In this document: one piece after another, positions 1,322 to 19,557 of the stretch
Numbering within the stretch: the stretch's first letter is position 1
How the letters are laid out: each line of letters begins with the position of its first letter
From: a virus
Taxonomy: Duplodnaviria; Heunggongvirae; Uroviricota; Caudoviricetes
Length of the DNA stretch: 19,557 nt
Strand: one strand, 5' to 3'
Virus record (IMG/VR): IMGVR_UViG_2529293142_000017
Location: 1-19,557 of that record
The notes under the pieces: model-generated
What the model was told of the DNA's origin: nothing
Seen by the model: the letters and a program-made list of their open reading frames with translations, nothing else
Databases searched by the model: none
Made by a program: the position numbers and the translations under genes

Positions 1322-1400
1322 GGAGACTCATCCTCAGACCGGCAAGCCAGGAAAAGGTCGCAGGAAAAACCGGCTTACTGTTTGTTTTTTTATATTTTAC

Positions 1401-1680: not shown

Positions 1681-1782
1681 AATCCCCCCTGTTGCGTCTG
1701 CCAAAAATATTCACAAAATAAAGCGCTACCCGAAGCCGGACGGACTTATCCGGTGCTGTATGGACATTAACGAGGTAGCCCG

Positions 1783-2049: not shown

Positions 2050-2084
2050 TGATGCCCGCTCTGCAAAAAGTCCCTTTTTCTGGC

Positions 2085-2114
2085 TTGCCTTTTTCCGGCA
2101 TTTGCGGATATAGT
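2085..2114 (+). promoter_or_regulatory. Candidate sigma70 promoter (TTGCCT-N17/18-TATAGT) at the head of a structured leader
   Basis: Hexamers at 2085-2090 and 2108-2114, immediately followed by a perfect 7-bp hairpin (2121-2140). Position corresponds to the early leftward promoter and immunity region of P4-type elements. Confidence 0.3.
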
Positions 2115-2177
2115 TTTTCTGCTGCCGCAAAATCGGCAGCCGGGCGTGGAAACCCGAGCAATTCACAGGCGACATAT

Positions 2178-2199
2178 GACGCGCCATGCGTCTTTTTTT
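2178..2199 (+). terminator. Small intrinsic-terminator-like hairpin within the leader
   Basis: GACGC-GCCAT-GCGTC stem-loop followed by T7 (2193-2199), about 70 nt downstream of the candidate promoter. Confidence 0.35.
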
Positions 2200-2447
2200 G
2201 TGTCGCAATCAACGCCACAGAGCGCCAGATTATGGTGTGGTGTGTGGTCAGTCGTGCAGATGGCATTCCGTGCATCCTGCCCGCGTCCGCTCATTATGCC
2301 GCAGAGTCAATGGTAGCTCAGGCGGGGCAGCCTCCGGGCTGGCCGGTATCCTGTGAAGCCGGTATTTCCACCCCCGTCTGGGCTATCGCCATCGAGCGTG
2401 GAAACTCCGGCGATAGCGTTATTTGCTATTCACAGGAGGCTGCCATC

Positions 2448-2645
2448 ATGGCTACAACCCTTACCCCCTCACACCCTGAATTTGTCTTTGTGTTTGCGGC
2501 TGTCCGTCGCGCAGACCGTCATCCCCGTATCTGCATGCTTCGCACCGTCGCCGGTGATGAACGCAGTGCCCGCCGTTCCCTTGTCCGTGACTATGTGCTC
2601 TCCCTTGCTGCCCGTCTGCCGGTGGTGGAGGTGTCCCGTGCGTAA
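2448..2645 (+). CDS. Hypothetical small protein (65 aa)
   Basis: AGGAGG RBS (2434-2439) 8 nt before ATG 2448. Its stop overlaps the GTG start of the next gene, consistent with translational coupling. It is the 3' part of the long 2001-2645 open frame. Confidence 0.4.
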
Positions 2646-2925
2646 TAAAAAAGCCCCTCAGACCGTCTCAGCGCGTCATGACGCCCGTGAACACCTCAGC
2701 ATTGAGGCTTACCATAAGCTCAACCGCGCCAGCGCCGTATCCCAGTTTGTTGGGGGTGATTTGATTCACCGTGAACTCTCCGGCCTGCATCAGCTCTACA
2801 TTCCGCATATTTTCAGCTACCTGAATGAAGATATTGATTTTGTGCTGAATGAGCTGAAAGCCAAAGGCCTGTGCCGCGATTTTCTCGCCCAGCAGAAAGA
2901 CCGGGGAGACAGGACGCATGTTTGA
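2638..2925 (+). CDS. Hypothetical small protein (95 aa); candidate epsilon-like derepression protein by position and size only
   Basis: GGAGG RBS (2626-2630) 7 nt before GTG 2638. Lies in the same operon ahead of alpha. No motif recognised. Confidence 0.5.
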
Positions 2926-3331
2926 TTTTCCCCAGCCCGGTGAGATTTACCGTTCTGCCGGTTTTCCCGATGTGGCCGTGGTCGGCATTCTGGAAGACGG
3001 TATTCCGTGGGAAATGCCGTACCGCTGCCCGGACATTGTCTGGAACCCGTACCGCCGTAAATTCAGTATCCTTGTGCGTATCCTCGCTGACGGGCGCACC
3101 ACAGACATCCCGCTGGGGCGTTTTCTGCGGGAATTTACCTGTGACCGTCCTGACCTGTTTAAACGCAGCCCCGTAAACCGGCATGCGGTACTGAAAGAAA
3201 TGGCCGGAGACCCGGAATTACAGAAATGGCGGGAGAAATATCTGGATATTTACCCGCAGGCCCCCTGTTCCGGTCAGCCGGGCGGCACCGGTGGCGCGGG
3301 AATGGCGGGAAATTCCCCGCACGGAGCCTGA
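2918..3331 (+). CDS. Hypothetical protein (137 aa), P4-type left-operon gene
   Basis: GGGGAG RBS about 9 nt before ATG 2918. Start overlaps the previous stop. Codon usage matches the neighbouring GC-rich genes. Confidence 0.55.
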
Positions 3332-3510
3332 CCCGGAAATCACCCCGGATAACAGTTACCGCAATTATCTGTAAATTAAAAAACGACCCCCGAAAAATTA
3401 AATGTGCGTATTCGCGCAGGGATACGCACGTCTTCAGGAGACGCAGATATGCCTTATCAGTTAATGCAACCGGCACGGAATGCAGTCATCTGTCACAGGG
3501 AGGAAAACAA

Positions 3511-3831
3511 ATGAAAACACCCTTACCGCCCGTCTTACGCGCTGCCCTTTACCGTCGCGCTGTCGCCTGTGCCTGGCTGACCGTGTGCGAACGTCAGCAC
3601 CGCTACCCGCATCTCACCCTTGAGTCACTGGAGGCGGCCATCGCCGCTGAGCTGGAAGGCTTTTATCTGCGCCAGCACGGTGAGGAAAAAGGGCGTCAGA
3701 TAGCCTGTGCCCTGCTGGAAGATTTAATGGAATCCGGCCCCCTGAAGGCCGCGCCGTCGCTGTCCTTTCTCGGGCTGGTTGTGATGGATGAACTCTGTGC
3801 CCGTCACATAAAAGCGCCGGTACTGCACTGA
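3511..3831 (+). CDS. Hypothetical protein (106 aa) immediately upstream of alpha
   Basis: AGGGAGG RBS (3497-3503) 7 nt before ATG 3511. Stop lies 14 nt before the alpha start. It is the in-frame 3' part of the 3226-3831 ORF. Confidence 0.6.
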
Positions 3832-3845
3832 AGGAGAACAACACC

Positions 3846-6179: not shown

Positions 6180-6195
6180 CCCTCATGACTCATCT

Positions 6196-6219
6196 GACCG
6201 GCATCTGCCGGTCTTTTTT
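6196..6219 (+). terminator. Rho-independent terminator after alpha
   Basis: GACCGG-CATCTG-CCGGTC hairpin followed by T6, 17 nt after the alpha stop. Confidence 0.6.
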
Positions 6220-6238
6220 ATCCCTGAATTCCCCGAAG

Positions 6239-6536
6239 GTGAACAATCCACTGTTCACCCTTCACCGTGTATTCACCCGTTATCACACTGAAATTAAAAG
6301 AGAAAAACGAAAGGTGAACAGTGTGAACAATCAAATCAAAAAAAACTTTTTTTTCTCCCTGTGTGATTTCAGTACGGGGGATTAATCACCGGTATGAGTC
6401 ACACCGGCAGAATGCCGGAGGTGAAGAATCGAATGTTCACCCTTCACCCATTATTCACCACCTATCATACTGAAATAAAAGGAGAAAAAGAAAGGTGAAC
6501 AGTGTGAACAGTTCTTCCGAAAAAAATTTTTTCTTA
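6239..6536. repeat. Two ~120-bp direct repeats, each with several TGTTCACC/GGTGAACA iterons (crr-like cis replication region)
   Basis: Copy A is about 6239-6358 and copy B about 6420-6536, roughly 60 bp apart and about 85 percent identical by eye. Each holds GGTGAACA, TGTTCACC, TTCACC and TATTCACC variants plus GGTGAACAGTGTGAACA, and each ends in an A-run/T-run tract (A8-C-T8 and A7-T6). Confidence 0.7.
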
Positions 6537-6651
6537 CTTTTAATTGTGTAAAAAACAGGCGATGCGCGCAGTGTGTATAGATATGTGTATAGTTATATTT
6601 TTTGAATATAATAATATCTTATAAATCAATGCTTTAACTTGCAATATTCAT

Positions 6652-6669
6652 TCCTATTATCGGCACCAT
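6652..6669 (+). repeat. Attachment-site core copy (left): 18 bp identical to 19004-19021, with the form of a tRNA 3' end
   Basis: TCCTATTATCGGCACCAT reads as T-stem 3' half, acceptor 3' half, discriminator A and CCA. No D arm or anticodon arm lies upstream, so it is a partial tRNA copy. It sits about 115 bp after the crr-like repeats. Confidence 0.7.
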
Positions 6670-7274
6670 CAAGAAAATCAATAACTTAGCTTAACTTCTC
6701 TAAGAAATTGTATCTTCTGTTATCACTTACAAACGCCTATACGTTGTTATGGGCTTTGGTAGTGTAACACGTATGGGCGAGTAGTTCCCAAGCTCAACCT
6801 CGTAACAAGTTCCTTTGAAGCTGGAAGACGTGCCACCGTCTCTAAACCTTCTACCAAAACTCTTAGCAAGATGTTCCACACCTGGCGCGGTGTCCAATGA
6901 TGCTACACGTCGTGAGACGTTGCAGAGGATAAACAGGCTAAATGATGGGAAGAGTTTTAAGTGCAATAGTGGATTAAAGCCCACCTCTTCAAAACCTAAC
7001 TTGATCGGGAAAGAATCAAGCTCTAGCACGGTTTCGTCCACCGGAGTACAACGGGTGCCTGATAAGAGAAGAACTGCTAAGACTTCATAGCTTTTGTGAA
7101 AAAGCCCTTTTTAGTGGATACGCCTACGGCGCTTATTTTTTGGTATAACCATCAAAGGCGCTTTATGGCTTCTATTGTCTTGAAAATGTATCTTTACTTG
7201 TATTGTGTTTTATGCGTAGTCTCCCTGTGTAGTATGTAACTTGTTAATTTTCATATGAATACAGAGGCAACACG

Positions 7275-7433
7275 ATGAAAAACATTGCAGCTATAAAACG
7301 TAATAACCGCAAGATTCACGCTCGTAAGTTCCTGTCTACGCCAGAAGGAAAAGCCTGGTTAGAGCGTAAACAGAGAGAGAACGAAGAAAGAAAACTCCTT
7401 AGTGAGTTGAAATGGCTTAGAGAGGATTTCTGA
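7275..7433 (+). CDS. Possible small basic protein (52 aa), not in the supplied ORF track
   Basis: AGAGG 7 nt before ATG 7275. Encodes MKNIAAIKRNNRKIHARKFLSTPEGKAWLERKQRENEERKLLSELKWLREDF, a charged helical peptide. Too short for compositional support. Confidence 0.3.
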   Translation: MKNIAAIKRNNRKIHARKFLSTPEGKAWLERKQRENEERKLLSELKWLREDF

Positions 7434-7700
7434 AAATCTCCAGAACGCAACAGGACGCATTCTAACGCTGTTTTCATTGCTTGATATAGGGATGTATAGG
7501 TGGTGTGTGTTTAATGCGTCTGTGAGCTTGTTTTGTGCCTTATTTTGCATTTTCATAATGCAGAAGAGAACACGGAAAGCCTTAAAATTAATTATTTGGG
7601 TATTTAAGGCTATTTTCAGGTTATTTAAGGGTATTAAACTTGATTTAATTGGTTGAAATATAAACAGATAGTTCTGTATCTTATTGATTTATAAGGTTAT

Positions 7701-7780
7701 TTTTAAATAAAGGTAAATAAAAAATAAATAGCCATAAATAGCTATAAATACATCTAAATACCTATAAATCCCTTTGAATA
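7701..7780. repeat. Eight tandem 10-bp units ending in ATAAATA (helically phased A/T repeat)
   Basis: ttttaaataa, aggtaaataa, aaaataaata, gccataaata, gctataaata, catctaaata, cctataaatc, cctttgaata. The exact 10-bp period predicts intrinsically bent DNA. Confidence 0.6.
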
Positions 7781-7884
7781 CATATGAAGCCCTTCCCTTA
7801 TGGCTAGATTGCGAGAGGTGCTTAACGCGATTTTCAGCGCCCCCCGATCTGGAAAATCCAGAATCCCCAAATATCAAGGAGGCA

Positions 7885-8424
7885 TTACGCCTCCTCTTCT
7901 TCCTTCTTAATTCGCTGTACCGTCGAAGGAGCAACATTAAAGATCTCGGCGGTTTTACGCACTGACAGGCCATCAGAAAGGGCTTTCTTTATACCTTCTC
8001 TATCTACTGCTTTTCCATTACCACGCTTTGTAGGATTGACGGCTTGCGCTTCTCGTTTACGTTCTAACATCAGTTCACGTTCACACGTTGCCACTGCCGA
8101 CAACATAGTAAGCATCATTTTTCCCATCGCGCTTGTAATGTCAGCAATGATCCCTTCTTTGTGAAATCGAACAATTACACCACGATTATTAAGCTCTTCC
8201 ACTAAAGCAAGAATGTCTAAGGTGTTACGCCCTAAACGGTCGAGAGAGTGCACGTGTAAGGTGTCGCCTTCTCTCAGATAGGATAAACACGCCTGCAATC
8301 CTGGACGGTTAGTGTCTTTACCTGACAGCTTATCTTCAAAGACTTTATCAAGCGTTACTCCTGCAAGCTGGCGATCAGTGTTCTGATCTACAGTGCTCAC
8401 ACGCTTATAACCGATATTGCTCAT
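7885..8424 (-). CDS. Serine recombinase of the resolvase/DNA-invertase family (179 aa)
   Basis: N-terminal GYKRVSTVDQNTDRQ catalytic-serine motif, internal SLDRLGRN, and C-terminal HTH (TAEIFNVAPSTVQRIKK). AAGAGG RBS before ATG at 8424. Confidence 0.9.
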   Translation of the reverse strand: MSNIGYKRVSTVDQNTDRQLAGVTLDKVFEDKLSGKDTNRPGLQACLSYLREGDTLHVHSLDRLGRNTLDILALVEELNNRGVIVRFHKEGIIADITSAMGKMMLTMLSAVATCERELMLERKREAQAVNPTKRGNGKAVDREGIKKALSDGLSVRKTAEIFNVAPSTVQRIKKEEEEA

Positions 8425-8439
8425 AAAATCCTCTTAATG

Positions 8440-8560
8440 TATCGATTTGGCACTACTTCAATGCAAATGAGTATATCGTATTCATTTGGTCTGTTTCAAG
8501 CCTTATAGGTACGGAATATTACACGATTTAGCTGTATTCATTTGGTATGCCTAATGGATA
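8440..8560. promoter_or_regulatory. Candidate recombinase target or regulatory region with TTTGG-type repeats
   Basis: Direct repeats GTATTCATTTGGT at 8478 and 8535, and imperfect palindromes ATTTGGCA-N-TGCAAAT (8446-8470) and ATTTGGCA-N25-TGCCAAAT (8621-8661), immediately upstream of the recombinase start, where res or inversion sites usually lie. Confidence 0.25.
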
Positions 8561-8994
8561 CACAGGGGAATAGATTAAATGGTGTTCTGTTTATACAGGT
8601 TTATTTGTTAGATCAACAATTTGGCATTTCTAAACAGATGTTTGAACGTTGCCAAATGTCTTGACAACACAAGAAAAGGGCTTGCTATGCCACGCATTAC
8701 ACGAAATAAGGCTGTAAAAACAAAATAAATTTTAAAATTTGCACAAACGAGAAAACTCATTCGACAAATAATAGATTAATTTTTAGCCAACAATTTCTGA
8801 TGGTGCTCTGTAAGCCGCATTACACAAGGCTTTGCGAAAGTGATGTAAAAGTGAAGAAAGTTAACATTGCTCTTTTAAGCTACTTTTTCATTGAATTTTT
8901 AGTATGGAATTACACAGGAATAAGTTAGGGATATTCTATGATTTACACAGGGAATATAGGGGGATTATGGCACACACATAGAAAGGCATTACAC
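8518..8994 (+). repeat. Dispersed direct repeats of ATTACACAGG(A)ATA-type motif, at least 6 copies
   Basis: ATTACAC at 8518, 8696, 8819, 8909 and 8988, TTTACAC at 8942, plus ATACACAGGGGAATAG at 8558. Inverted copies (GTGTAATT) at 9476, 9530 and 9581. AATTACAC-N12-GTGTAATT forms a perfect inverted pair at 9510-9537. Confidence 0.5.
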
Positions 8995-9256
8995 AGAGTG
9001 AGTGCTATGTGACAAATGGATGTAACGAGAGGTTACATTCAGCTATCTGAAATGCTCTTTGTAAGAAAGTTGGTAGTAACGGTAGGTCATAGTGAGCTAG
9101 GGGGTAGGTCACTGTGAACTACAATAAGACTATTAATAAAACTATATTAGATTATTAATTAGATCATAATAATAATATTCTTTATATCTATATATATATG
9201 ATCTTTTGCCTTCCGGCGTTAGCTTCACTCTCTGGCAAGCAACCTTACTCCGCTAC

Positions 9257-9352
9257 CTTTCGGGCTTCGTGGCTGGCCCGTTCCGCTCACACCGAAAGCA
9301 AAGCGTTACTTTCTTCGTGTAACTATCGTTGGCGGTAACGCCCACGAAGAAA
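9257..9352. other. GC-richer island of interleaved inverted repeats inside AT-rich non-coding DNA
   Basis: CTTTCGG (9257) pairs with CCGAAAG (9292); GCGTTAC (9303) with GTAACGC (9335); TTTCTTCGTG (9310) with CACGAAGAAA (9343). The last two pairs cross each other, giving a pseudoknot-like or alternative-hairpin topology. Confidence 0.4.
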
Positions 9353-9631
9353 TACTATTGCGCTGTGCGCAGTAAGAGTAATCACCTAACCAATCATACT
9401 GATTGCTTACGTGTTAACTCTCTCTAACTCTTAATTACCCTCCTACATTTAATAACTCTGTTATTCTCTGTAGTTGTGTAATTACTCGAAGAGAGAGCGG
9501 CTAAAGCTCAATTACACTCTGCTTTCCTCGTGTAATTTCACTAAGCCTCAATACAATTTCACTTCCTACATTCTGTAGTCGTGTAATTGTTTTCGGTGGA
9601 AAAGCCAGAGGCGACACCGAAAGAGAATTCT

Positions 9632-9695
9632 GATCTTATTAATCTTATCTATCTTAGTTAATCTTCTTACTTATCTTACTTAATCTTTATCTACT
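9632..9695. repeat. Phased ATCTTA repeats (about 7 copies, 9-10 bp period) starting with a GATC 13-mer-like element
   Basis: GATCTTATTAATC at 9632-9644 resembles the oriC-type 13-mer class (GATCT + AT-rich), followed by aatcttatct, atcttagtta, atcttcttac, ttatcttact, taatctttat. Confidence 0.45.
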
Positions 9696-10223
9696 TTATT
9701 ATTAATAATAGCTTTATAAGCTCTCTGTAGCTCTCTGACGCAAGAAACAGCATTCAGGAAGGGAATCACCTTAGAAAAGTGTTCTTTGCGTCATAATGTG
9801 TTTTATGAAGGATTCAGAGGTGTTTCATAACAGGAATGTATAGAGGATACGTTAGGTAATTAAAAATAAGGGGTCTAAATGCTTCTCTAACAGCATTAAG
9901 CAGGGTAGGGAATGGAAACGCATTGCCTACATATATAATCTCACTACAGAGCTTTACAGAGCGTTTTATAAAGTGACTCTCTATCTTATATCTACCATCA
10001 CCTTTTTATATACCTAACAAATACCAAATAAGCCCCTTAAATAAGCCTCTGGCGAGCTAAACAGCCATTACATAAGGGAATGTATTGCTTTTATCAAAAC
10101 TTCGTTAGAACGCGTTTTAGAGCGTTTTAGACAATAATGAAGAATAGCACTACACAGAAGAGCACGAATTGCTAAGAAAAAATGTAAGTGCATGAAAAAG
10201 ATCAGATTTTTTGTGAAAAGGTA

Positions 10224-10252
10224 TTGACAAATGTTTCTTTATATGTAATAAT
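10224..10252 (+). promoter_or_regulatory. Candidate sigma70 promoter for the plus-strand small-gene operon
   Basis: TTGACA (10224-10229), 16-17 bp spacer, TAATAAT (10246-10252), about 110 bp upstream of the first gene. Confidence 0.5.
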
Positions 10253-10361
10253 AGGTATTAGAGGGACAGAAAAACATTCTTCTCTAAATAATCAAAATCA
10301 ATGCACTTTGAAGCCGTCAGGCTTGCAAGGTGTTTTTCTTTTAACTGAATAAGGAGTTTTT

Positions 10362-10550
10362 ATGAAATGGTTTACACCGAAACACGTCGTCGAGGCATTT
10401 AAAAAAGGTGAGCTAACACGCCACCAGGTAGTAATGAACCGTAATATGGCAAGGAGTCGAGGTTATCCAGAGCGAGCAGCTTGCTTCAATGAAGCACTCA
10501 AGATTATTGATGAACTAAGAAAAAATGAAAAAGAATCTGAAACAGAGTAA
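10362..10550 (+). CDS. Hypothetical small protein (62 aa)
   Basis: AAGGAG RBS 5 nt before ATG. First gene after the promoter. Basic and helical. Confidence 0.5.
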   Translation: MKWFTPKHVVEAFKKGELTRHQVVMNRNMARSRGYPERAACFNEALKIIDELRKNEKESETE

Positions 10551-10569
10551 AGAATAGAAGGAGAAAACT

Positions 10570-10740
10570 ATGAGCGAAACTACAGAAAAGAAAAGACAAC
10601 CACGCACTTGCTTTCATATTCCTGATGAAGTATTTCAGGTGTTGTTTAAAGAAGCCAGAAGTAGACGTATCACTGTTACAGATTACATTCTTGATATGTT
10701 GAAAAGAGAGGCTGAAACACTCTCAAATAAAAGCAAGTGA
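10570..10740 (+). CDS. Probable ribbon-helix-helix (Arc/MetJ/CopG-like) DNA-binding protein (56 aa), not in the ORF track
   Basis: AAGGAG RBS 7 nt before ATG 10570. RTCFHIPDEVFQVLFKEARSRRITVTDYILDMLKRE fits a beta-strand plus two helices. Confidence 0.5.
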   Translation: MSETTEKKRQPRTCFHIPDEVFQVLFKEARSRRITVTDYILDMLKREAETLSNKSK

Positions 10741-10793
10741 TTTTTATCACCATAGTAGCGCCGTAGAGCGTGATTACATCAAGGAGATTTTTA

Positions 10794-11483
10794 ATGATTA
10801 ACCAACTAACTTTTACAAAACACTATGACACGTTTGATAATGTATCAAAGATTTATTCTGATAAATTCCCTCAAGGAAAAGATTTAGATCTATTACATAT
10901 TGTGCTTTATTTTCGATTCCTTAGTTATCAGGAAAACAACCTTAATTGTTATGAAAGTCACGAAACATTAGCTAAGATTTTTAAGTCTTCAGCGTCAACA
11001 ATTAAACGTAAGATAAACGATCTTAAAGAGATGGGATTATTAGAAACATCCCCACATCCTGATCCGTATATTTCATCTTTGATTTACAATGCTCTCCCTC
11101 TCACAGATGCACATATTACTCCCCCAGGAGAATCATCACTCTCTGATCTTTCTGAGGCAGCAGAAGCACAGGAACAACCTAAAGGCCATAAACAGCCTTC
11201 TTTTGATGTTCTTGATGATTGGGATGCGCCTTTGCCGTGGGAGACGGAAGAAACACCTGTTTCATCAAGTGAAAAGGTAGCTAATGATAATGAGGAGGAT
11301 GTGTTAGAGAATTTTGCCTCTCTTATCTGCCAGCAGAAACACACCAGAACAGGAGGGGCATCATTTATAGAATTTGCAAATTCACTAGCTTATAGACACG
11401 GGCTAAAACGACCAAATGGTATTGAGGCATATTTTTCTAAGAATTACCCAAATGTGTATGATGACTTTGATATTCCATTTTAA
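10794..11483 (+). CDS. Winged-helix DNA-binding protein with acidic C-terminal region (229 aa); candidate replication initiator or regulator
   Basis: AAGGAG RBS 7 nt before ATG 10794 (the track's upstream GTG start would cover the RBS). HTH-like segment ESHETLAKIFKSSASTIKRKINDLKEMGLLE. Acidic Ser/Glu-rich C-terminal half. Confidence 0.7.
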   Translation: MINQLTFTKHYDTFDNVSKIYSDKFPQGKDLDLLHIVLYFRFLSYQENNLNCYESHETLAKIFKSSASTIKRKINDLKEMGLLETSPHPDPYISSLIYNALPLTDAHITPPGESSLSDLSEAAEAQEQPKGHKQPSFDVLDDWDAPLPWETEETPVSSSEKVANDNEEDVLENFASLICQQKHTRTGGASFIEFANSLAYRHGLKRPNGIEAYFSKNYPNVYDDFDIPF

Positions 11484-11494
11484 TAAGGAGGGTT

Positions 11495-11773
11495 ATGATT
11501 CAATATTTAGTAAAAAATCAAGTAGACAGAATTCAGTGTAATGACACAGGAAAACGCATCTACGAAACACTTGCTTACCTCTATAAAGGAAAGCCAACAC
11601 CGCTAAAATATAGCGATGTGTTACATCGAGCAGGGTGCTCTGAAGATGGTTTAAAATTCTGGCTGAAACAGCTATCAAATTTCGGTGTTATAGAGATTAA
11701 AGAATTATCTTTCTCTACATTCAATCTCAAAAGACTGGATAAAGAAATAGTATTCATCTATTCCACTCTCTAA
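11495..11773 (+). CDS. Hypothetical protein (92 aa), possible small HTH protein
   Basis: AGGAGGG RBS directly upstream, 11 nt after the previous stop. The YSDVLHRAGCSEDGLKFWLKQLSNFGVIEI segment looks HTH-like. Confidence 0.6.
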   Translation: MIQYLVKNQVDRIQCNDTGKRIYETLAYLYKGKPTPLKYSDVLHRAGCSEDGLKFWLKQLSNFGVIEIKELSFSTFNLKRLDKEIVFIYSTL

Positions 11774-11905
11774 AATCTCTCTATGTAATTAAAATATAAA
11801 AGGAAAACATTATTATGATAGTAGCTATGTATTGGTTATTGTTCTTTCTCACGTTAGAAACATATTTCGGGGTGTTTTCCTTTAAAAGAAAAGGAAAAGT
11901 AAATA

Positions 11906-12313
11906 ATGGCAAAAAGAAAAAACAACGTTGTTAAGAAAATCGGTGATTCAGCTTCTCTTCTAAGTAAACCTAAATCTATTCTAAGACGTAAAGACTTTAA
12001 AGAGCTAGTTACGCTCTCCAAGCAAAATAGCGCCCCTGGCGAATGGAAAACAGAGATCATAGAACATTCTCCCTCTGTGCCTTGTGGAGATGAATTTAAC
12101 GCCTTACAAGAAATCTTATCTTCAACACCTGGCGTATTCTGGAAACCTAGAAAAAGAAAAGAGTATATTGTTGATAGCTCTGATTTACGCAAATACCAGA
12201 TTTTAGGATTTGAAGACTATAACCACTACGTTGGTTATCTCGCCACCAATGGCCTAAATAATTTAGTTCCTGAATTCCATTTAGATAATGATGATCACTA
12301 TGGAGACTTTTAA
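11906..12313 (+). CDS. Hypothetical protein (135 aa)
   Basis: AAAGGAAAAG RBS region before ATG. Basic N-terminus (MAKRKNNVVKK). Same strand and codon style as neighbours. Confidence 0.6.
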   Translation: MAKRKNNVVKKIGDSASLLSKPKSILRRKDFKELVTLSKQNSAPGEWKTEIIEHSPSVPCGDEFNALQEILSSTPGVFWKPRKRKEYIVDSSDLRKYQILGFEDYNHYVGYLATNGLNNLVPEFHLDNDDHYGDF

Positions 12314-12314
12314 T

Positions 12315-12653
12315 ATGAACAAAAACACGTATGATACAATTTACTCACTAATTAATTATTATGAGGATGATTACCTCCTGCCTTTAAACCGCGCTGAACT
12401 TGAAGCATATAAAGAAAATACACCATCGGCACTAAATGAGGCGTTTAAACACTGGGATCTAGCTGTGAATGCCTTGGAGCACCTCTTTAAGCGTGTAGAG
12501 ATGCTCTGTAAGCGCGAAAACGCATATCTGACAGCGGATCAGATATGGGAGCTATCAAACTGGATAGAAGATATTGAATCTGATGTTCGCTATGTGGGAG
12601 ATGGCCTTATCGAACTCGCACAACGCTTAGGCGCTGCTATCACAGAAGAATAA
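12315..12653 (+). CDS. Hypothetical protein (112 aa)
   Basis: GGAG 9 nt before ATG 12315, which lies 1 nt after the previous stop. The track's earlier start (12288) overlaps the upstream gene and has no RBS. Confidence 0.6.
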   Translation: MNKNTYDTIYSLINYYEDDYLLPLNRAELEAYKENTPSALNEAFKHWDLAVNALEHLFKRVEMLCKRENAYLTADQIWELSNWIEDIESDVRYVGDGLIELAQRLGAAITEE

Positions 12654-12682
12654 AAAAAGCAACAAAAAAGTTGTAAAATATC

Positions 12683-12711
12683 TTGACATTTCATATATTG
12701 TATGTTAATAT
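12683..12711 (+). promoter_or_regulatory. Near-consensus sigma70 promoter (TTGACA-N17-TAATAT)
   Basis: Hexamers at 12683-12688 and 12706-12711 in the intergenic gap after the 112-aa gene. Confidence 0.55.
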
Positions 12712-12909
12712 AATTATATGGGGTGATTATTTTTCCTTTATTGGTTCGATATTAAAAATTCTTCTTGTCGTTAAAGGGGAGTAAAATCTCCGCTCCCCGC
12801 TTCTCCTCCTTAAGTAAATACTGTGTCATTATTACCTCTTTTTTCCTTTGTTATGCATACATCTTGGAGTATGCATAACATAGGGTAATTACATAGGTAC
12901 AAGTTAATA

Positions 12910-12941
12910 AAAGGCGGCTCTAAATGCTGCCTTTTATTTTG
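12910..12941 (+). terminator. Intrinsic-terminator-like hairpin ending a ~200-nt ORF-free leader
   Basis: AAAGGCGGC-TCTAAAT-GCTGCCTTT (9-bp stem with one G-T) followed by TATTTTG. Lies between the strong promoter and the next gene start at 13003. Confidence 0.5.
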
Positions 12942-13002
12942 CCCGTTATGCAACTTAAAAGTTGTATTTCTTACTTTAAACAAGGTAACAAGGTTTATAT
13001 AA

Positions 13003-13215
13003 ATGTTGTTTTTAAACGATAAAGAGCAAATCATCAAGTATAAAGATGAAATGCTGAAAATTAATCCACAAATTACCGAAATGGTAGCTAAATACGCTGG
13101 GTGTTCTGTCGAGGAAGTAGAAAGATGTGTTGAAAAATATTTTTCTCCTTCTTCTCCGTCTACACCTTCCCTTAATGAATTAATCAAATTAAAAGCTAAG
13201 GAGATTACTAAATGA
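13003..13215 (+). CDS. Hypothetical small protein (70 aa)
   Basis: Weak RBS (AAGG about 12 nt upstream). Stop overlaps the next start (ATGA). Confidence 0.45.
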   Translation: MLFLNDKEQIIKYKDEMLKINPQITEMVAKYAGCSVEEVERCVEKYFSPSSPSTPSLNELIKLKAKEITK

Positions 13216-13574
13216 TTATTGATTTAGACACTCTATTTCCAGTTCGAAAGACTTTCACAGATATTGTAAGTTATTGTACTGATCCGTTTGCCTCTGTAGA
13301 AAGCAAGGTTTTTGCTTCTCTTCCTGCTGATGTTGAATGCGGAGACTTGATCACCAGCACTGGCGCTAAATATGAATCAGGAGATGATATCTATGTTGTT
13401 ATGAGTGAATTTTTAACGGCTGGAGAAAATAAGCCTGTAGATGTTTTACGTAGCAATGCTGGCCTTGTCTGCATCAAATCTGATGCGCTGAATGCTGTAA
13501 GTGAAGCAGCAAAAACAGCATTAATTAAAAAAGGCTTCCAGCTTGAAGGGTTCCATTCTGTTTTCACTTCTTAA
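13212..13574 (+). CDS. Hypothetical protein (120 aa)
   Basis: AAGGAG RBS 8 nt before ATG, overlapping the previous stop. Acidic protein. Confidence 0.6.
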   Translation: MIIDLDTLFPVRKTFTDIVSYCTDPFASVESKVFASLPADVECGDLITSTGAKYESGDDIYVVMSEFLTAGENKPVDVLRSNAGLVCIKSDALNAVSEAAKTALIKKGFQLEGFHSVFTS

Positions 13575-13592
13575 TAAAAGGAATAATAATAA

Positions 13593-14621
13593 ATGATTTT
13601 AGGTAATGATTACGTTGATTTAGCTCCTCTGTTCTCTGCGCATAGCACTAGAAACTATCTGCTTTCTACTCTTGATTTTACGGATTCTGTAGGGGTTACA
13701 TCTCATAAAGTAGCTGTTTCCCAGCTTGTCGAAAGCAACGAATCTCTGTTCAACAAAGAAACCTCTCGTTTCTCTTCTGAACACAACGTTACTAAGCGTG
13801 AACAAGGCAAAGAATATCTTATCGAAATCCCGTACTTTTTAAGGCAAGACCTGATCAAACCGCAGGACGTGCAAGGCAAGCGTAAGCCTGGCACTGATTT
13901 TCAGGAAACACTCACTGATATCTATGCTGACTATGTTGCTAAACACCACGTAGCGTATCAGCGCACTAAAGAAAGCGTATTGGCTGCTTCTTTGTTTAGT
14001 GGTCGCACCTATACCCCGAAAACTGACGATGTTCTTATCGAGTGGGGCAAGCTGTTTAACGTATCAGCTATGAAAGCCACTGTGAACGCTTCCAGCACTG
14101 ACACCACGAAGATTTTTAAAGAATTTGATCAGATTGCTACGAATATTATCGACAGAGCACAAAGCCAGGCGGCTGCTGTAGAAAGAATTGTTGTTTTCTG
14201 TAAACCTGACGCCTTCTCTGCAATTCGATTCTCTGCTGGTATGGCAAACGCATTCCAGTATGTAAGCCCACTGGAAGAGGGGAATGTTGTGTATCAGCGT
14301 CGTGACCTGCTGCCAGGGGTGACAGCGTTCACTATCCCAGGAACTAACATTGATGTTGTTAAACTGGTAGATCCGCTACACCTTGCACATATGACCGCAG
14401 ACGCTGTAGCTGTTCCGAAGTTTGCTAAAGGCTCTAATGTATATCAGAACATCTACGGGGCTGCTTCCAGCACCTTTGAACTGATTAATGCCGCTCCTGC
14501 TGAGGTGTACAGCTATAGCTATGAATCTTCTCGTGGTGATGCTGTTAACGTTGTTACAGAGAATAGCCAGATGGTGGTAAACCACGGCGTTGGCTTCTCT
14601 GTTCAAATCACTGTTAAATAA
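13593..14621 (+). CDS. Hypothetical protein (342 aa) with virion-structural-like composition; candidate major structural protein
   Basis: RBS-like AAAGGAA before ATG. Rich in Ala/Ser/Thr/Val/Asn with no Cys-rich or nucleotide-binding motifs. Followed by a strong terminator, as is common after highly expressed structural genes. No family recognised from sequence. Confidence 0.8.
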   Translation: MILGNDYVDLAPLFSAHSTRNYLLSTLDFTDSVGVTSHKVAVSQLVESNESLFNKETSRFSSEHNVTKREQGKEYLIEIPYFLRQDLIKPQDVQGKRKPGTDFQETLTDIYADYVAKHHVAYQRTKESVLAASLFSGRTYTPKTDDVLIEWGKLFNVSAMKATVNASSTDTTKIFKEFDQIATNIIDRAQSQAAAVERIVVFCKPDAFSAIRFSAGMANAFQYVSPLEEGNVVYQRRDLLPGVTAFTIPGTNIDVVKLVDPLHLAHMTADAVAVPKFAKGSNVYQNIYGAASSTFELINAAPAEVYSYSYESSRGDAVNVVTENSQMVVNHGVGFSVQITVK

Positions 14622-14640
14622 CATTTTAACGTGTAATAGA

Positions 14641-14673
14641 GGCGTGGCGTGTATTCACGCTTCGCCTTTTTTT
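14641..14673 (+). terminator. Rho-independent terminator
   Basis: Nested GC stem (GGCG...GCGTG-TATT-CACGC...CGCC) followed by T7, 20 nt after the 342-aa gene stop. Confidence 0.65.
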
Positions 14674-14707
14674 ATTTATTTTTTAAATTTTGAGAGGTGA
14701 TTAAAAT

Positions 14708-14911
14708 ATGGAAGTGATTCTGAAATCAAAAAATGGTGTACACGTACATTTAGATGCTAATGATTCTAGAGGATTGTTAAATCTGAAATATCTATGTTCT
14801 CTCCTAGATGTTCCATATGAAGGAGTAAAAGCCCGTATGTTCAGACTAAACGAGAGTATTGATCAAGCTCTACACCATTTCTTAAGTAAAGAAGGTGGTA
14901 AAAATGATTAA
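14708..14911 (+). CDS. Hypothetical small protein (67 aa)
   Basis: GAGAGGTGA RBS 7 nt before ATG. First gene after the terminator. Confidence 0.5.
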   Translation: MEVILKSKNGVHVHLDANDSRGLLNLKYLCSLLDVPYEGVKARMFRLNESIDQALHHFLSKEGGKND

Positions 14912-14925
14912 TAAGGGGATTTTAA

Positions 14926-16755
14926 ATGTTAGAAATTAACACTTCTAAAATTAAGAACACAGTTACATTTAGTGTAGATAAAGACAGCTTGAAAAAAGCG
15001 AAAGACTCTATTACAGGCTTAAAGGAATTCGCAGAAAATATCAAGCCAGCTAAATTAAGGTTTGATAATGTCACTAAAGGCTATAAGAAAGCACAAAACG
15101 AAGTAGACAAGATTGCTCAACAGAAAGCCAAAACAGAAAAACAGAATCAAAGAGCACAAGCTGCCGCAGCAAGAGCACAGGCAAGGCAACAGGCACAAAT
15201 AGCAGCACGCAAGGAGAAAGCAGAATTAAAGCTCCTTGATGTGTCAAGCTCTATCAGTGCAATGCACCGTCTCTCTGTAGCTGAACAATACAAAGCTATT
15301 GCACAGGCTAGAGAGATAGCAAAACAATATGAGCAAGGGGCTATCTCGCTTGCACGTATGAATAGCCAGATGAAACGCCTACAACAGCAACAACGTAAGA
15401 TTAATGGCAACCGAAAAGCACAATTAGCCCCCGTTAAGGGAGGATCAGGGAATTCCGCCACTATGGGCGCTCTGTTATTTGGAGGCGCTACGGCTGCTGC
15501 TGGCGTGATGGCTGTTAGTAAAGCCTCTGAATTTATGGCTAATAGCTTCGCTAACGCAGAGACACAAGGAGAGCTAATTCAACGTGCAAGGCTTGGCGGT
15601 GTAGACGTTAACCAGATGTATAATATTACAGAATGGGCGTATAAAAACGGCGTTGACTCTATGATGGGTGATCAAGGGGCTAGAAAATACCTGGATCAGA
15701 TGAAAGATGTTAGGGAACGTGCCGCAAAATCCTACAGTGAAGCTGAATTGGTGAAAGATAAGAAAACCGGAAAATCTGAATGGAAAGGCGGTGATAACGC
15801 TATTAATGAACTTCTAAACATCGGTGTTATTAACAAAAGCGACCTTAAAAAATTTGCTGATAATCCAGCCGGATTAATTTCTAAGGCTGTTAATGGAATG
15901 ATGAAAAAAGGGTTTTCAGACTCCCAAATTGGACAACGTTTAGAAGACCTGGGCGATGATTTGATGCTTACGTCAAAATATTGGCAACGTTCCGTTAAAG
16001 ATGTACAAGAAAGTATTAATCAGCAAAAAGCCTCTGGAAAATGGCTAACAGAAACACAGCAAGAATCTATCGTTAAATTCAGAGAACTAAACAGACAGCT
16101 TTCACAGCTTTCTGATGCAAGACAAGTAGCATTTGTAGACGGCTTTATGAAATCTCTCGATCCAAAAGTAACGGAAGAGTTTTTGAAAAACCTTTCTAAT
16201 CTCACTCCGTATTTTACGAAGCTGGGAGAAGCTACAGGAAGTCTCTTTGAAGCTATTATGAAGATTGTAAACTGGTTTAATCGTAATGATGATAAGACAG
16301 ATGCTATTCAGAAAAATTTAGGTGATGCACCGCCTTTGAGTAATGAAGGGATGAAACAGCATCTTTCTAATCTCGTTCCTGACCAATATAAAGGCGCTGG
16401 CACTGCAACAACTACACCTGATAATAGTCATTCTCTCTTTAACACGATTAAGGGATTGCTTTTCGATGATAATTCTTCTGTGTCAGATGTAAAAATGTCA
16501 GTCAATGAAGCACCGATAACCAATCTCAAACAGGGTGCTTTAAATAATCTTGCAATGACAACTCCGGCTTATAATTTATCTCCTGTGTTTAATCTGAATC
16601 CGACCTTTGAAGTGGTAACAGAGGTTCCTCTTACTATTAATTCTGACACATCAAGATTAAGCGATTATGTGGATTTTACAGCGAGAGCAAGTCGGGATAG
16701 CTTCTTGAAATCATTAACATTAACCAGCTTATCAGGACAATCCAACGGCGGGTAA
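14926..16755 (+). CDS. Hypothetical protein (609 aa) resembling a tape-measure or pilot protein: basic Gln/Ala-rich coiled coil plus a Gly/Ala hydrophobic segment
   Basis: AAGGGG RBS 9 nt before ATG. Residues ~60-170 are Lys/Gln/Ala-rich helix (QKAKTEKQNQRAQAAAARAQARQQAQIAARKEKAE), followed by GALLFGGATAAAGVMAV. No signal peptide and no enzymatic motif recognised. Confidence 0.8.
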   Translation: MLEINTSKIKNTVTFSVDKDSLKKAKDSITGLKEFAENIKPAKLRFDNVTKGYKKAQNEVDKIAQQKAKTEKQNQRAQAAAARAQARQQAQIAARKEKAELKLLDVSSSISAMHRLSVAEQYKAIAQAREIAKQYEQGAISLARMNSQMKRLQQQQRKINGNRKAQLAPVKGGSGNSATMGALLFGGATAAAGVMAVSKASEFMANSFANAETQGELIQRARLGGVDVNQMYNITEWAYKNGVDSMMGDQGARKYLDQMKDVRERAAKSYSEAELVKDKKTGKSEWKGGDNAINELLNIGVINKSDLKKFADNPAGLISKAVNGMMKKGFSDSQIGQRLEDLGDDLMLTSKYWQRSVKDVQESINQQKASGKWLTETQQESIVKFRELNRQLSQLSDARQVAFVDGFMKSLDPKVTEEFLKNLSNLTPYFTKLGEATGSLFEAIMKIVNWFNRNDDKTDAIQKNLGDAPPLSNEGMKQHLSNLVPDQYKGAGTATTTPDNSHSLFNTIKGLLFDDNSSVSDVKMSVNEAPITNLKQGALNNLAMTTPAYNLSPVFNLNPTFEVVTEVPLTINSDTSRLSDYVDFTARASRDSFLKSLTLTSLSGQSNGG

Positions 16756-16786
16756 TTCCCGCCATAACATTACAAGGAAAATTATT

Positions 16787-17500
16787 ATGGCAACGGCGGG
16801 AATTTTAACCATACGATCAGCAAATACTCCAGAACAACACGTTCAGGCTGTTTACAAAGCAGAACAAGATATAAACTCTACAAAAAACGAAAATAGCAAA
16901 GCTAATAAAACAAAAGGAGAGAACGGATTTGCTATTGTTACCAGTGGACTGGCATCTTCTGGCAATGACGTTTATGAAAATTATATGGCACTGGCCTTTG
17001 ACAGTGTTGACGACGTGAACGTGAGACGTTCGGCAGATGTTACAAGCTACCCCGTAGAAAATGGTGCTACTGTGTCTGATCACGTTCAAATTAAAAACAA
17101 TAAATTTTCTCTTAAAGGAAGGATCACTGAAACACCGATTAAAAGCGATCCTGGCTTGTTAAAGAGTGCAGGGGTGAACGGGAACAGAAGATCATTAGCT
17201 ATCGACTACCTGAATCAGATTATGGACAGTAGACAGCCTTTTCTTCTTGTTACAGAAAATAAAACTTTTGAGAACGTTGTTTTAACAGGCATCGAATACA
17301 CAGAAGAGGCAAGCGAATCCCTGGTATTTGATCTTAGCTTTGAGCAGATCAGGCTCGTTTCGTATGGCACTGTAAACACTGTAGCTCTCAAAACACAGCC
17401 ATCTAAGAACATTGGGGCTAATATGAAAAAACGTGTTAACACTGAAAAATCAAGTAGTGAAGGTGAAGACACTATTACTCCTGCCTTTAAACAGGAATAG
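16787..17500 (+). CDS. Hypothetical protein (237 aa), structural-like, co-transcribed with the 609-aa gene
   Basis: AAGGA RBS about 9 nt before ATG, 31 nt after the previous stop. Beta-rich composition (VTSYPVENGATVSDHVQIKNNKFSLKGRITETPI). Confidence 0.8.
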   Translation: MATAGILTIRSANTPEQHVQAVYKAEQDINSTKNENSKANKTKGENGFAIVTSGLASSGNDVYENYMALAFDSVDDVNVRRSADVTSYPVENGATVSDHVQIKNNKFSLKGRITETPIKSDPGLLKSAGVNGNRRSLAIDYLNQIMDSRQPFLLVTENKTFENVVLTGIEYTEEASESLVFDLSFEQIRLVSYGTVNTVALKTQPSKNIGANMKKRVNTEKSSSEGEDTITPAFKQE

Positions 17501-17542
17501 CTGTAAATGCCTCTAAAACGCTCTGTAACGATGTAATTATAA

Positions 17543-17573
17543 AAGAGGCTACCAATCTATGTTGAAGCCTCTT
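17543..17573. terminator. Hairpin between convergent genes (possible bidirectional terminator)
   Basis: AAGAGGC-N17-GCCTCTT with flanking A/T, between the 237-aa gene stop (17500) and the integrase stop (17582). Confidence 0.45.
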
Positions 17574-17581
17574 TATTGCGT

Positions 17582-18946
17582 CTATGGCGTTGTTTTACGC
17601 CTTAAATTTGATTTTTTATTGATTGATAAGCCTTTCTCTATTTCAGGGTAGCGTAGAAGCTCAATATATTTTTTAAGCTCTACTGGAGAAGCTGCATTCT
17701 TGCTATATGTGCGGAATGTCTCTGTATTACCGCGTGTATGGCCCAGGAGAAGGGCGATCCTGTCTTCTGGAATTTGATTTCGATCAAGAAGCTGTGCTAC
17801 TCCGTGTCTCAGAGAATGAAACACCTTCCTTTCTGTTCCCTTTTCCCCTAAAGCCTTTCGTTTAGCTCTTGTAAATCTCTGCGTGTGCCACGTGGAACGT
17901 TTACCATCAGCACGCTCTGTAATGCTGGCGTGATAGAACAAAAAGCCATTGTGAGGCTTTTCACGAAGAGATAACACCAATGGAGTGATAAGGCTATGCA
18001 CAGGCACAAGACGTGCCGCAGCTTTCGTTTTTCCCTGTGTGATTTCAAAACACAGCACACCTTCGATCTCTTTCACATCGTCTATTGTGAGACTTGCTAT
18101 CTCATTGATCCGCATACCTGTATAAGCACCGATAAGACACAAAGCCATCATTTCTTTGTTTTCTGCTGAATTACCGGAAAATACTTGCAACACTTGCAAT
18201 AGCTCTTTGTTAGAAAATGCCTCATAGCTCTCTCTACTTTGTGCCACATCAAGCCTATGCCCTCGCCAGGGGGAGAGCGCCCTTTCTGGCGCATCGTGGT
18301 AACGTGATGAAGCTAACTCCCATAGCTGGGCCATTGGGCTGATATAATTTGCAATTGATTGTTGTGAAAGGGTTTTTTGCATGTGTTCAATCCAGCCTGT
18401 AACAGTGGTGCGGCTCACATCTTGCAATGCAATATCAGGCTTTTTACGGTAGGAGAGAAACATCTCTACCGCTTTTCTTGCCTTAGCTAAAGTGGCTGGC
18501 TTCTTCTTCGTGCTGTTAATTGTCAGGTAGATTTCAAGAATTTTAAGCAATGACGGACACGAAGACGCTGTATCTTGCACTCTGGTAGCTGTTTTGGCGT
18601 ATTTAGCCTTACTGCGTAACAGTTCCAGCGTGTTCTCTATTGTGCTGTTTACAGGAGCGACACTCTCCCGTAAACAATGGTATTCATCTGCAATCTGATC
18701 ACGCTTTCTACGTGCAACACGAAGATTACTTGTGTGTAGACTTCTGACAAACGTCCTTTTTCCTTCAAAAAAGGGCTGCATATACACAGGCAACGTGATC
18801 CTCAAATAGTAGTTACCGTAAGAATCACAGATTATGTATTGATTGGGCTTGTATCTCATAAACTCCCCGGCTAAAGTGTCGGAGCGTTTGTAATGTGAAA
18901 ATTGATTGTAACGCATAGAAAATGATAATTTTTCTATAAGATTCAA
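17582..18946 (-). CDS. Tyrosine recombinase / integrase of the P4 type
   Basis: C-terminal catalytic region with HSLRHGVAQLL and LLGHTRGNTETFRTYSK (R-H-R-Y architecture), and an N-terminal arm-binding-like domain. The track start is TTG at 18946; ATG at 18859 with a GGGGAG RBS is a more likely start (about 425 aa). Reads away from the adjacent att core. Confidence 0.9.
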   Translation of the reverse strand: MNLIEKLSFSMRYNQFSHYKRSDTLAGEFMRYKPNQYIICDSYGNYYLRITLPVYMQPFFEGKRTFVRSLHTSNLRVARRKRDQIADEYHCLRESVAPVNSTIENTLELLRSKAKYAKTATRVQDTASSCPSLLKILEIYLTINSTKKKPATLAKARKAVEMFLSYRKKPDIALQDVSRTTVTGWIEHMQKTLSQQSIANYISPMAQLWELASSRYHDAPERALSPWRGHRLDVAQSRESYEAFSNKELLQVLQVFSGNSAENKEMMALCLIGAYTGMRINEIASLTIDDVKEIEGVLCFEITQGKTKAAARLVPVHSLITPLVLSLREKPHNGFLFYHASITERADGKRSTWHTQRFTRAKRKALGEKGTERKVFHSLRHGVAQLLDRNQIPEDRIALLLGHTRGNTETFRTYSKNAASPVELKKYIELLRYPEIEKGLSINKKSNLRRKTTP

Positions 18947-19003
18947 TCAATTAGTAATGGTCGTAGGTGATGGCATTAACACGAGATTAATCGAGTGTTT
19001 TAC

Positions 19004-19021
19004 TCCTATTATCGGCACCAT
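19004..19021 (+). repeat. Attachment-site core copy (right): 18 bp identical to 6652-6669
   Basis: TCCTATTATCGGCACCAT, then AAAATCAA shared with the left copy after a 1-3 nt difference. A 10-mer GGTCGTAGGT resembling a tRNA T-arm lies 35 bp upstream (18959-18968). Confidence 0.7.
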
Positions 19022-19146
19022 TAAAATCAAAGAGTTACCCCATATTTAAATACACCACGTTTCCTCCTGTGCCGCATTTGTGCCATTGTAACCTTGGCAA
19101 TTCATCAAAATACTGTTCTGACATCAGGCAGTGCAGGTGCAGCTAT

Positions 19147-19557
19147 TTAAACCAATTGCTGCCGCCATTCTTTGACGTAGTCAATCAGGGCGCGGAGCTT
19201 TGGTGCAATATTGCGACGCTGTGGGAAATACAGATAGAAGCCCGGAAATTGTGGAAGAAAGTCATCAAGCAGCGATACAAGCTTACCGCTTTCAATATAT
19301 GGCCTGAAAGTTTCCTGAGTGGCAATTGTTATTCCTCCGCCGGCAAGAGCCAGCCTCAACATCAGACGCAGATCATTAGTCGTAATCTGCGGTTCAATCG
19401 CAAGGTCGAAAGTTCTCCCGTTTTCTTCAAATGGCCAGCGATAAGGCGCAACCTCCGGGGACTGACGCCAGCCGATACACTTATGGGTATTTCCCCCGGA
19501 GGCGAGAAAGCGCTCTCCACGCCCGGCCGCAAGGATCAGGACGACGGGGGCAGGCAT
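19147..19557 (-). CDS. LysR-family transcriptional regulator, C-terminal effector-binding domain only (chromosomal flank)
   Basis: 136 aa matching the LysR substrate-binding-domain pattern (LILAAGRGERFLA...LRLMLRLALAGGGITI...YLYFPQRR). No N-terminal HTH is present. The window ends exactly at an ATG, so this is either truncated by the window edge or a short or pseudogene form. Confidence 0.75.
   Translation of the reverse strand: MPAPVVLILAAGRGERFLASGGNTHKCIGWRQSPEVAPYRWPFEENGRTFDLAIEPQITTNDLRLMLRLALAGGGITIATQETFRPYIESGKLVSLLDDFLPQFPGFYLYFPQRRNIAPKLRALIDYVKEWRQQLV

Follow-up and report, generated by a model that had tools for sequence, protein, structure and literature searches.

A predicted promoter, structured RNA and terminator unit, and its possible role as a gate, ahead of the capsid/tail operon of a satellite-like island in Escherichia coli

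Late control in phage lambda is exerted downstream of the PR' promoter: its transcript, the 194-nt 6S RNA, stops at the tR' terminator, which is read through once Q modifies RNA polymerase. The immunity of P4 also relies on premature termination, with a constitutive promoter, PLE, a structured leader and the CI RNA (C4/CI clan of Rfam), and in further systems the antitermination signals reside in the leader RNA, as in lambda nut (boxA/boxB and N), HK022 put, the ops element of RfaH, the Bacillus EAR and the leader hairpins of LoaP. We analyzed a 19,557-nucleotide stretch of DNA (the window; all coordinates refer to it, and the features described are on the + strand unless stated otherwise) in which a promoter, an untranslated structured RNA and an intrinsic terminator, extending from 12683 to 12941, are followed by an operon of capsid and tail genes. 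As judged from sequence comparisons, this unit is real, under selection and unannotated, and its position is most likely that of a control point between the early genes, for regulation and replication, and the capsid/tail genes.

The arrangement resembles that of PR'-6S-tR' in that a strong promoter lies right after a small regulatory gene and right before the structural genes, an untranslated transcript of ~200 nt ends at an intrinsic terminator, and no separate promoter serves the structural genes, which is the layout of a Q module. It differs from lambda in the lack of a Q homologue in the island, two small early proteins, p112 and p135, showing no match to Q in Pfam, PHROG or PDB sequences. 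Moreover, the island is satellite-like and probably has virulent phi92-like rather than lambdoid phages as helpers, its leader has much more structure and is up to 970 nt long in relatives, and its early operon appears to be gated likewise. A Q-type binding site or a sigma-dependent pause element is not reliably recognisable in such AT-rich sequence; the hexamer GATTAT (12724-12729) is -10-like, and such hexamers are common in AT-rich DNA and not consistent in the other groups of relatives.

With P4 immunity, the locus shares a satellite context, a constitutive-looking promoter, short structured transcripts that would end before a downstream operon, and G-rich and C-rich repeats within the leader that could pair mutually. 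However, the Rfam C4 model misses the leader and matches the neighbouring P4-like element (2306-2393), and the genes gated here are capsid/tail genes, not replication genes. The likeness to the antitermination signals of leader RNAs lies in a conserved promoter-proximal A-GGG start, followed by terminators to be passed, and in a 5' hairpin with an invariant loop and covarying stems in one group of relatives (the 61-64% group, see below). Unlike in those systems, no NusG paralogue or N-like protein was detected in the island. The window leader contains no boxA (GCUCUUUA-type) at up to 1 mismatch in 8 or up to 3 in 12 positions and no ops element GGCGGTAG at up to 1 mismatch, and the boxA-like strings of the relatives are the arms of covarying hairpins.

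When the window was searched with Rfam 15 at the gathering threshold, only C4, isrK and c4-a1b1 were found, all within 2108-2393 and none in the leader. At E ≤ 10, the best match in 12600-13050 was STnc250, with 18.6 bits against a gathering threshold of 42 (E = 0.31), and ten related loci gave no Rfam matches. The unit is like the Hfq-binding sRNAs, to which STnc250 belongs, in having a terminator hairpin and a U tail after an A/U-rich stretch, but the weak match spans little beyond the second leader hairpin and the terminator, and the leader is not a member of this family. BLAST of the spacer carrying the unit against 50,697 phage records returned no match, and literature searches turned up nothing specific on the leader sequences, the island or satellite antitermination.

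The window is E. coli chromosomal DNA. Positions 1-6200 are occupied by a P4-like satellite adjoining the island, with a 777-aa alpha primase/helicase (3846-6179) and gathering-level Rfam matches to the C4 antisense RNA (2306-2393), isrK (2121-2198) and the c4-a1b1 target (2108-2160). The island itself, from ~6200 to 19000, is a low-GC integrative element that carries a tyrosine integrase at its end, also encodes a serine recombinase and is located at the thrW tRNA locus in strain 20KM2762. Its genes between 10362 and 17500 are all on the + strand and start with an early block composed of a 62-aa protein, an RHH protein, a Rep-like HTH protein, a 92-aa protein, p135 and p112. No portal, terminase or protease was found in the element, and PADLOC gave no matches on it; it is termed satellite-like because capsid/tail genes are present without these three functions, and it looks like an undescribed phage-satellite family. 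Of 5,426 complete E. coli genomes, 308 (~6%) contain the spacer at ≥90% identity, with O26, O103 and O111 EHEC and strain NC101 among the carriers, and it is annotated in none of them. Two stretches of the element, 6200-7880 and 8425-10200 (1.7-1.9 kb each), contain no ORF of at least 50 aa and no RefSeq annotation; additional RNAs, regulatory DNA or the remains of decayed genes may be located there.

The helpers of the element are likely phi92-like virulent myophages (Stephanstirmvirinae). These are probable because short patches of the early region (within 10558-11167) are 90-98% identical to the Stephanstirmvirinae phages inny, Mt1B1_P17 and BI-EHEC, and because the gene order decoration-capsid ... 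tape measure is the same as in phi92. A lambdoid helper was considered and rejected, as the nearest phage relatives of the capsid protein, only 23% identical, are phi92-like (phi92 itself among them) and Pakpunavirus-like, not lambda-like.

The promoter (12683-12711) is a near-consensus sigma-70 promoter composed of the -35 hexamer TTGACA (12683-12688), a 17-bp spacer and the -10 hexamer TAATAT (12706-12711), with an extended -10 TG at 12703-12704. It scores 10 of 12 plus the extended -10 and is the top site within 12000-13600; in the scanned region 6200-19557, only one more + strand site has equal quality, at 10224. The promoter is present in all five groups of relatives and near-invariant among the E. 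coli copies. Transcription is predicted to start around A12718, giving 5'-AUGGGGUGA, and the 5' part of the leader (12718-12775), which begins AUGGGGUGAUUA, carries a run of G at 12720-12723. An A-GGG(G) start, 7-10 nt past the -10, is found at essentially every late and early promoter of the family, whereas 68 kb of DNA from phi92-like phages has 14 promoters of comparable quality and none of them shows it. The resemblance of this region to a T7-like promoter (TATAGGG) was dismissed, as positions -17 to -5 show no conservation beyond the sigma-70 -10.

The -35 hexamer is abutted on its upstream side by Box 1, GCAACAAAAAAGTTGTA (12659-12675), an A-rich imperfect palindrome that forms a direct repeat with 12950-12966 and may be a UP-like element, an operator or a small RNA hairpin. 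The 17-nt box GCAAC-N6-GTTGTA thus occurs once just before the -35 and a second time just after the terminator, and these two are the only exact CAAC-N6-GTTG sites in the 19.5-kb window. The promoters of the relatives carry analogous xAAC-N6-GTTx boxes. An invertible or excisable segment between the two boxes was considered and discarded, all 300+ E. coli copies being collinear.

Downstream of the promoter follow three conserved hairpins together with a strong intrinsic terminator. The DNA motifs GGGGAG (12776-12781), CTCC (12788-12791), CTCCCC (12793-12798) and the pyrimidine-rich CTTCTCCTCC (12800-12809) correspond in the RNA to hairpin 1 (GGGGAGU/GCUCCCC, 12776-12798), observed in both the MFE and the centroid structures, and to a C/U-rich tract, CUUCUCCUCCUUA, which includes CCUCCUUA; hairpin and tract together cover 12776-12812. 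Four CUCC motifs are present, against 0.6 expected. CUCC and UCCC are over-represented 2-8 fold in the leaders of all groups and GGAG is not, and the CCUCCUUA of the window, in the tract at 12788-12812, is identical to the 3' end of 16S rRNA. Hairpin 2 (12845-12884) has 16-nt arms (12845-12860 and 12869-12884, 94% complementary), an 8-nt loop and the palindrome TATGCATA in each arm.

The 224-nt RNA folds with -65.3 kcal/mol, compared with -41.2 ± 3.7 kcal/mol for shuffled sequences (z = -6.6, 0 of 200 shuffles being as good), and its reverse strand folds less well relative to shuffles than the + strand (z = -4.9). The long-range outer helices of the MFE fold are probably not real, because they are deleted in many E. 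coli copies. No credible ORF was found in the ~224-nt leader, where only TTG- or GTG-initiated ORFs of 21-37 aa without a ribosome-binding site occur; one 32-aa ATG ORF begins within the terminator loop. The indels of 4, 8, 9 and 17 nt observed among the E. coli copies would disrupt the small ORFs of the leader.

The unit is closed by an intrinsic terminator (12906-12941) formed by AAUAAAAGGCGGC, a 7-nt loop and GCUGCCUUUUAUU (12906-12938): it has a 13-bp stem with a GC core (12913-12918/12926-12931), a loop at 12919-12925 and a stability of -17.3 kcal/mol for the hairpin alone, and it continues into the U tract UUUUAUUUU (12932-12940). Intrinsic terminators are characterized by a GC hairpin with a U run right behind it, situated on the transcribed strand at the end of the unit, and transcription is predicted to terminate here. 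A simple terminator scanner overlooked this hairpin, presumably because the T run is absorbed into the A/U extension of the stem. Most of the unit had been proposed in a sequence-only reading, namely a near-consensus sigma-70 promoter, an ORF-free structured leader of ~200 nt, a nested GGGGAG/CTCC/CTCCCC element with a pyrimidine-rich tract and a terminator hairpin before the operon of a 342-aa protein, and all of these are borne out by the present analysis, the U-rich segment extending to 12940. The inverted repeat noticed at the same time, TTATGCATAC (12851-12860) and GTATGCATAA (12869-12878), also exists; its spacer has 8 nt, not 9, and it is part of the longer hairpin 2.

Between the terminator and the ribosome-binding site lies Box 2, a post-terminator hairpin AUGCAACU-UAAA-AGUUGUAU (12948-12967). 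The capsid/tail operon follows (13003-17500) and starts with the genes of a 70-aa protein, p70 (13003-13215), and a 120-aa protein, p120 (13212-13574), which occupies the position of the phi92 head-decoration gene. Next come the 342-aa major capsid protein of the lambda-E type (PF03864, 13593-14621), a 67-aa protein encoded between the capsid and tape-measure-like genes, the tape-measure-like protein (phrog_16051, 14926-16755) and a Dit-like protein (PF21821, 16787-17500). No promoter-like site was found between the terminator and 13003, nor any strong + strand promoter within the operon, and the capsid/tail genes therefore appear to depend on read-through of 12906-12941. A second intrinsic terminator (14639-14670) is located directly 3' of the capsid gene in 36 of 36 E. 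coli-type loci and is absent from the other groups; phi92 likewise has a terminator after its capsid gene.

A T4-type late promoter (TATAAATA) between the terminator and the operon was also considered and rejected, as the candidate site, TATAAATG, overlaps the ATG at 13003. In phi92, one TATAAATA site occurs in 13 kb of structural genes, and it is intragenic. The loci L101-L108, which form the most distant group of relatives (the 55% group), carry an exact TATAAATA ~20-35 nt ahead of their first structural gene, just 5' of the Shine-Dalgarno sequence from which the p70 homologue would be translated; no exact site in this position was observed in any other group, and the motif is rare in the structural DNA of phi92.

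The early operon is preceded by a comparable set of signals. Its promoter, TTGACA-17-TGtAATAAT (10224-10252), is near-consensus with an extended -10, and its leader and terminator (the whole spanning 10224-10343) comprise a start near AGAGGG and a 13-bp hairpin (10303-10333) followed by UUUUUCUUUU, after which come a Shine-Dalgarno sequence and the ATG at 10362. Groups A, B, C and E keep this layout of promoter, A-GGG and terminator, and their stems covary. At the distal end of the early block are encoded p135 (11906-12313), which has a basic N-terminus with a PRKRK motif, and p112 (12315-12653), which is acidic and helical. The two proteins are candidate regulators; neither has a match in Pfam, PHROG, PADLOC or PDB sequences, whether to Q, N, NusG-like or other known families. 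The AlphaFold model of p135 has a pLDDT of 54, too poor for use, and matches of p112 to TALE repeats were discarded as sums of weak repeat matches with no significant stretch.

Comparison of 34 distinct E. coli-type sequences indicates how selection acts on the unit. The spacer has a divergence of 0.020 per site, against 0.05-0.16 at the four-fold sites of the flanking genes, i.e. it evolves 2.5-8 times slower than synonymous sites. Its most conserved part is hairpin 1 with the C/U tract (0.0055 substitutions per site), the post-terminator region (0.008) being also among the most conserved, and indels of 4-17 nt are restricted to two linkers. Changes within the stems mostly keep the RNA pairing, by wobble: at 12858:12871, 16 distinct sequences have U-A and 18 have U.G, 12845:12884 is C-G or U.G, and 12950:12965 of the post-terminator hairpin is G.U in 30 and A-U in 4 sequences. 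In one sequence, the pair 12850:12879 of hairpin 2 is broken. Roughly one in two E. coli copies has A12871G, a change that disrupts the palindrome in the DNA while the + strand RNA keeps a U.G pair. The strong purifying selection on hairpin 1 and the C/U tract seems to exceed the need of a mere terminator gate and hints at an additional RNA function.

We gathered 108 related loci from genomes, IMG/VR and metagenomes via homologues of the capsid protein. According to capsid identity to the window (54-100% overall), they fall into five groups: 88-100% (E. coli), ~77%, ~72%, 61-64% and ~55%; the hosts of the relatives include Klebsiella, Enterobacter, Citrobacter, Kluyvera and Buttiauxella. Across the family, the genes keep the order p135 - p112-like - spacer - p70 - p120 - capsid, and all groups have a consensus -35, usually an extended -10, and the A-GGG(G) start. 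The leaders range from ~225 to ~970 nt and none holds a conserved ORF. In 98 of 99 loci, a GC hairpin with a U run is found no more than 200 nt from the first structural gene, and its stems are non-homologous between groups; since the position is constant and the stems are unrelated, it is the terminator as such that persists and not a sequence. The other groups also have a further small hairpin ahead of the ribosome-binding site, with wobble-containing, covarying stems.

The sequence of the spacer itself is confined to the E. coli-type copies, the only ones matched by nhmmer among the related loci, so that covariation for the hairpins of the window amounts to few wobble changes. Spacers can be aligned only with others of their own group, the k-mers common to the groups are AT-rich words only, and no core motif extends across the five groups. 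Nevertheless, all the leaders tested fold far better than shuffled sequences (z = -6.4 to -12.7), and the + strand does so better than the - strand every time. In 84 non-redundant hairpins, 82 positions are G.U and 38 are A.C, a G.U share of 0.68 against ~0.55 expected, the latter being an estimate from base composition. In the 61-64% group, several hairpins show compensatory changes, and the 5' hairpin has the invariant loop AU(U)CGAAUC closed by the stems AAGU/ACUU, ACGU/ACGU or AUGU/ACAU; this hairpin is absent from the window RNA. In the MAFFT alignment, the two loop lengths of this hairpin are out of register. Likewise, RNAalifold recovered only 39 pairs from a 22-sequence leader alignment, because alignment by sequence breaks swapped hairpins. 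By these folding and pairing patterns, the leaders of the family are structured RNAs read from the + strand.

The reading we prefer, which we hold with about as much doubt as confidence, is that the unit is a terminator gate on the capsid/tail operon that needs antitermination or regulated read-through, in the manner of lambda PR'-6S RNA-tR', with an abundant terminated RNA as its product. A very strong sigma-70 promoter would initiate RNA near 12718, and polymerase would make a ~220-nt untranslated RNA consisting of hairpin 1 with the C/U tract, hairpin 2 and the terminator hairpin. Most transcripts would stop at the U tract, around 12938-12941, and the capsid/tail genes would be expressed only from polymerases that pass the 12906-12941 terminator; in the E. 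coli copies, these would also have to pass the 14639-14670 terminator after the capsid gene. A processive antitermination function would switch on read-through; it could be supplied by an early protein, with p135 and p112 as candidates, by the helper phage or by the 5' leader RNA. Terminated transcripts would accumulate and could have a function of their own. Both the regulated read-through and its candidate factor are what we infer from the layout of genes and signals; two gated operons, several terminators and a common promoter-proximal A-GGG mark fit processive antitermination. As a counterpoint to such a gate, the terminator may simply be leaky, so that short RNA and operon mRNA would be made in a constant, unregulated proportion.

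The RNA could also act in trans. According to this reading, the exposed C/U motifs (CUCC, CCUCCUUA) or the loops of the ~220-nt RNA would act on helper or host mRNAs, for example on their Shine-Dalgarno regions, or bind a protein, and the operon would be expressed by leak only; it can coexist with the gate, and an independent small RNA is possible as something compatible with the gating of the operon, not as an alternative to it. A unit that owns a strong promoter and a terminator, the outstanding conservation of hairpin 1 and the C/U tract, the enrichment of CUCC/UCCC but not GGAG in the leaders of all groups, the A-rich stretch before the terminator and the U run after it, as in many Hfq-type sRNAs, and the sub-threshold match of that part to STnc250 all speak for it. 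However, the leaders are unconserved between groups whose proteins are 55-77% identical, leaving no conserved seed, and they are anywhere from 225 to 970 nt long; complementarity to transcripts of the element itself is within the range of shuffled controls, the phage records searched contain no match, and the fixed site before the structural operon, together with the like layout at the early operon, points to a role in cis. We consider a trans-acting sRNA unlikely as the main explanation. The sequence-only reading had proposed a small RNA or an attenuator leader, and what stands of it is a structured unit before the operon of the 342-aa protein, i.e. the capsid protein (PF03864), in an arrangement that is under selection; its riboswitch part finds no Rfam match and no common core. 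A cis-acting riboswitch or attenuator, in which the leader would respond to a ligand, to temperature, to a stalled ribosome or to an RNA-binding protein by adopting either the terminator or an antiterminator fold, is very improbable. The G-rich segments (12720-12723 and 12776-12781) can pair alternatively with several C/U-rich segments, and the nascent AGGCGG (12912-12917) of the terminator 5' arm can pair with CCGCUU (12797-12802). This 6-bp helix is the sole upstream partner of the 5' arm and contributes 2.4 kcal/mol, whereas unpairing of the terminator 3' arm costs 15.2 kcal/mol, so that the terminator wins by 15 kcal/mol. In addition, no Rfam riboswitch or leader family was detected even at E ≤ 10, the relatives share no aptamer-like core, and there is no leader peptide.

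At the DNA level, the palindromes (TATGCATA, present twice, and the GCAAC-N6-GTTGTA boxes) could serve as operators, bound by a repressor or an activator, or could belong to an origin or a packaging site, in which case the structure of the RNA would be incidental. The two 17-nt boxes bracket the unit and are unique in the window as exact CAAC-N6-GTTG sites, in the other groups the box is inside or beside the promoter and would not be transcribed from it, and the element encodes RHH and HTH proteins. Against this, variation follows the RNA: A12871G spares the pairing and breaks the palindrome, for which reason the operator function suggested earlier for this inverted repeat is not favoured, the alternation of G and A at 12950 toggles between G.U and A-U, and the hairpins of the family have more G.U than A.C positions and always fold better as + strand than as - strand. 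The spacing from box to box also varies through indels. We regard a purely DNA-level element as improbable; a repressor site at the promoter boxes could coexist with the gate.

A broader extension of the terminator gate, which we advance as a speculation and consider unlikely, is that the leaders of the family are an undescribed class of large, fast-evolving structured RNAs which, together with the gated early operon, would form an infection sensor. Both operons would always be transcribed and held at their terminators, and a function brought or triggered by a phi92-like helper would recognise the A-GGG start or the 5' structure and release both; the terminated RNAs might in turn act on the helper. 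If the gate is real, a common and unstudied island would govern its two operons through termination and read-through and not through a classical repressor. This would give a simple and testable account of the way in which a satellite of virulent phages remains silent and is later turned on, and an unannotated, probably abundant RNA would be added to E. coli transcriptomes. The much larger late leaders of the relatives, of 450-970 nt (L004 4777-5400, L021 4455-5420, L056 4570-5420 and L104 4975-5420, in the coordinates of these loci), have no Rfam match and display covarying hairpins, and they are candidates for a new family of large structured RNAs.
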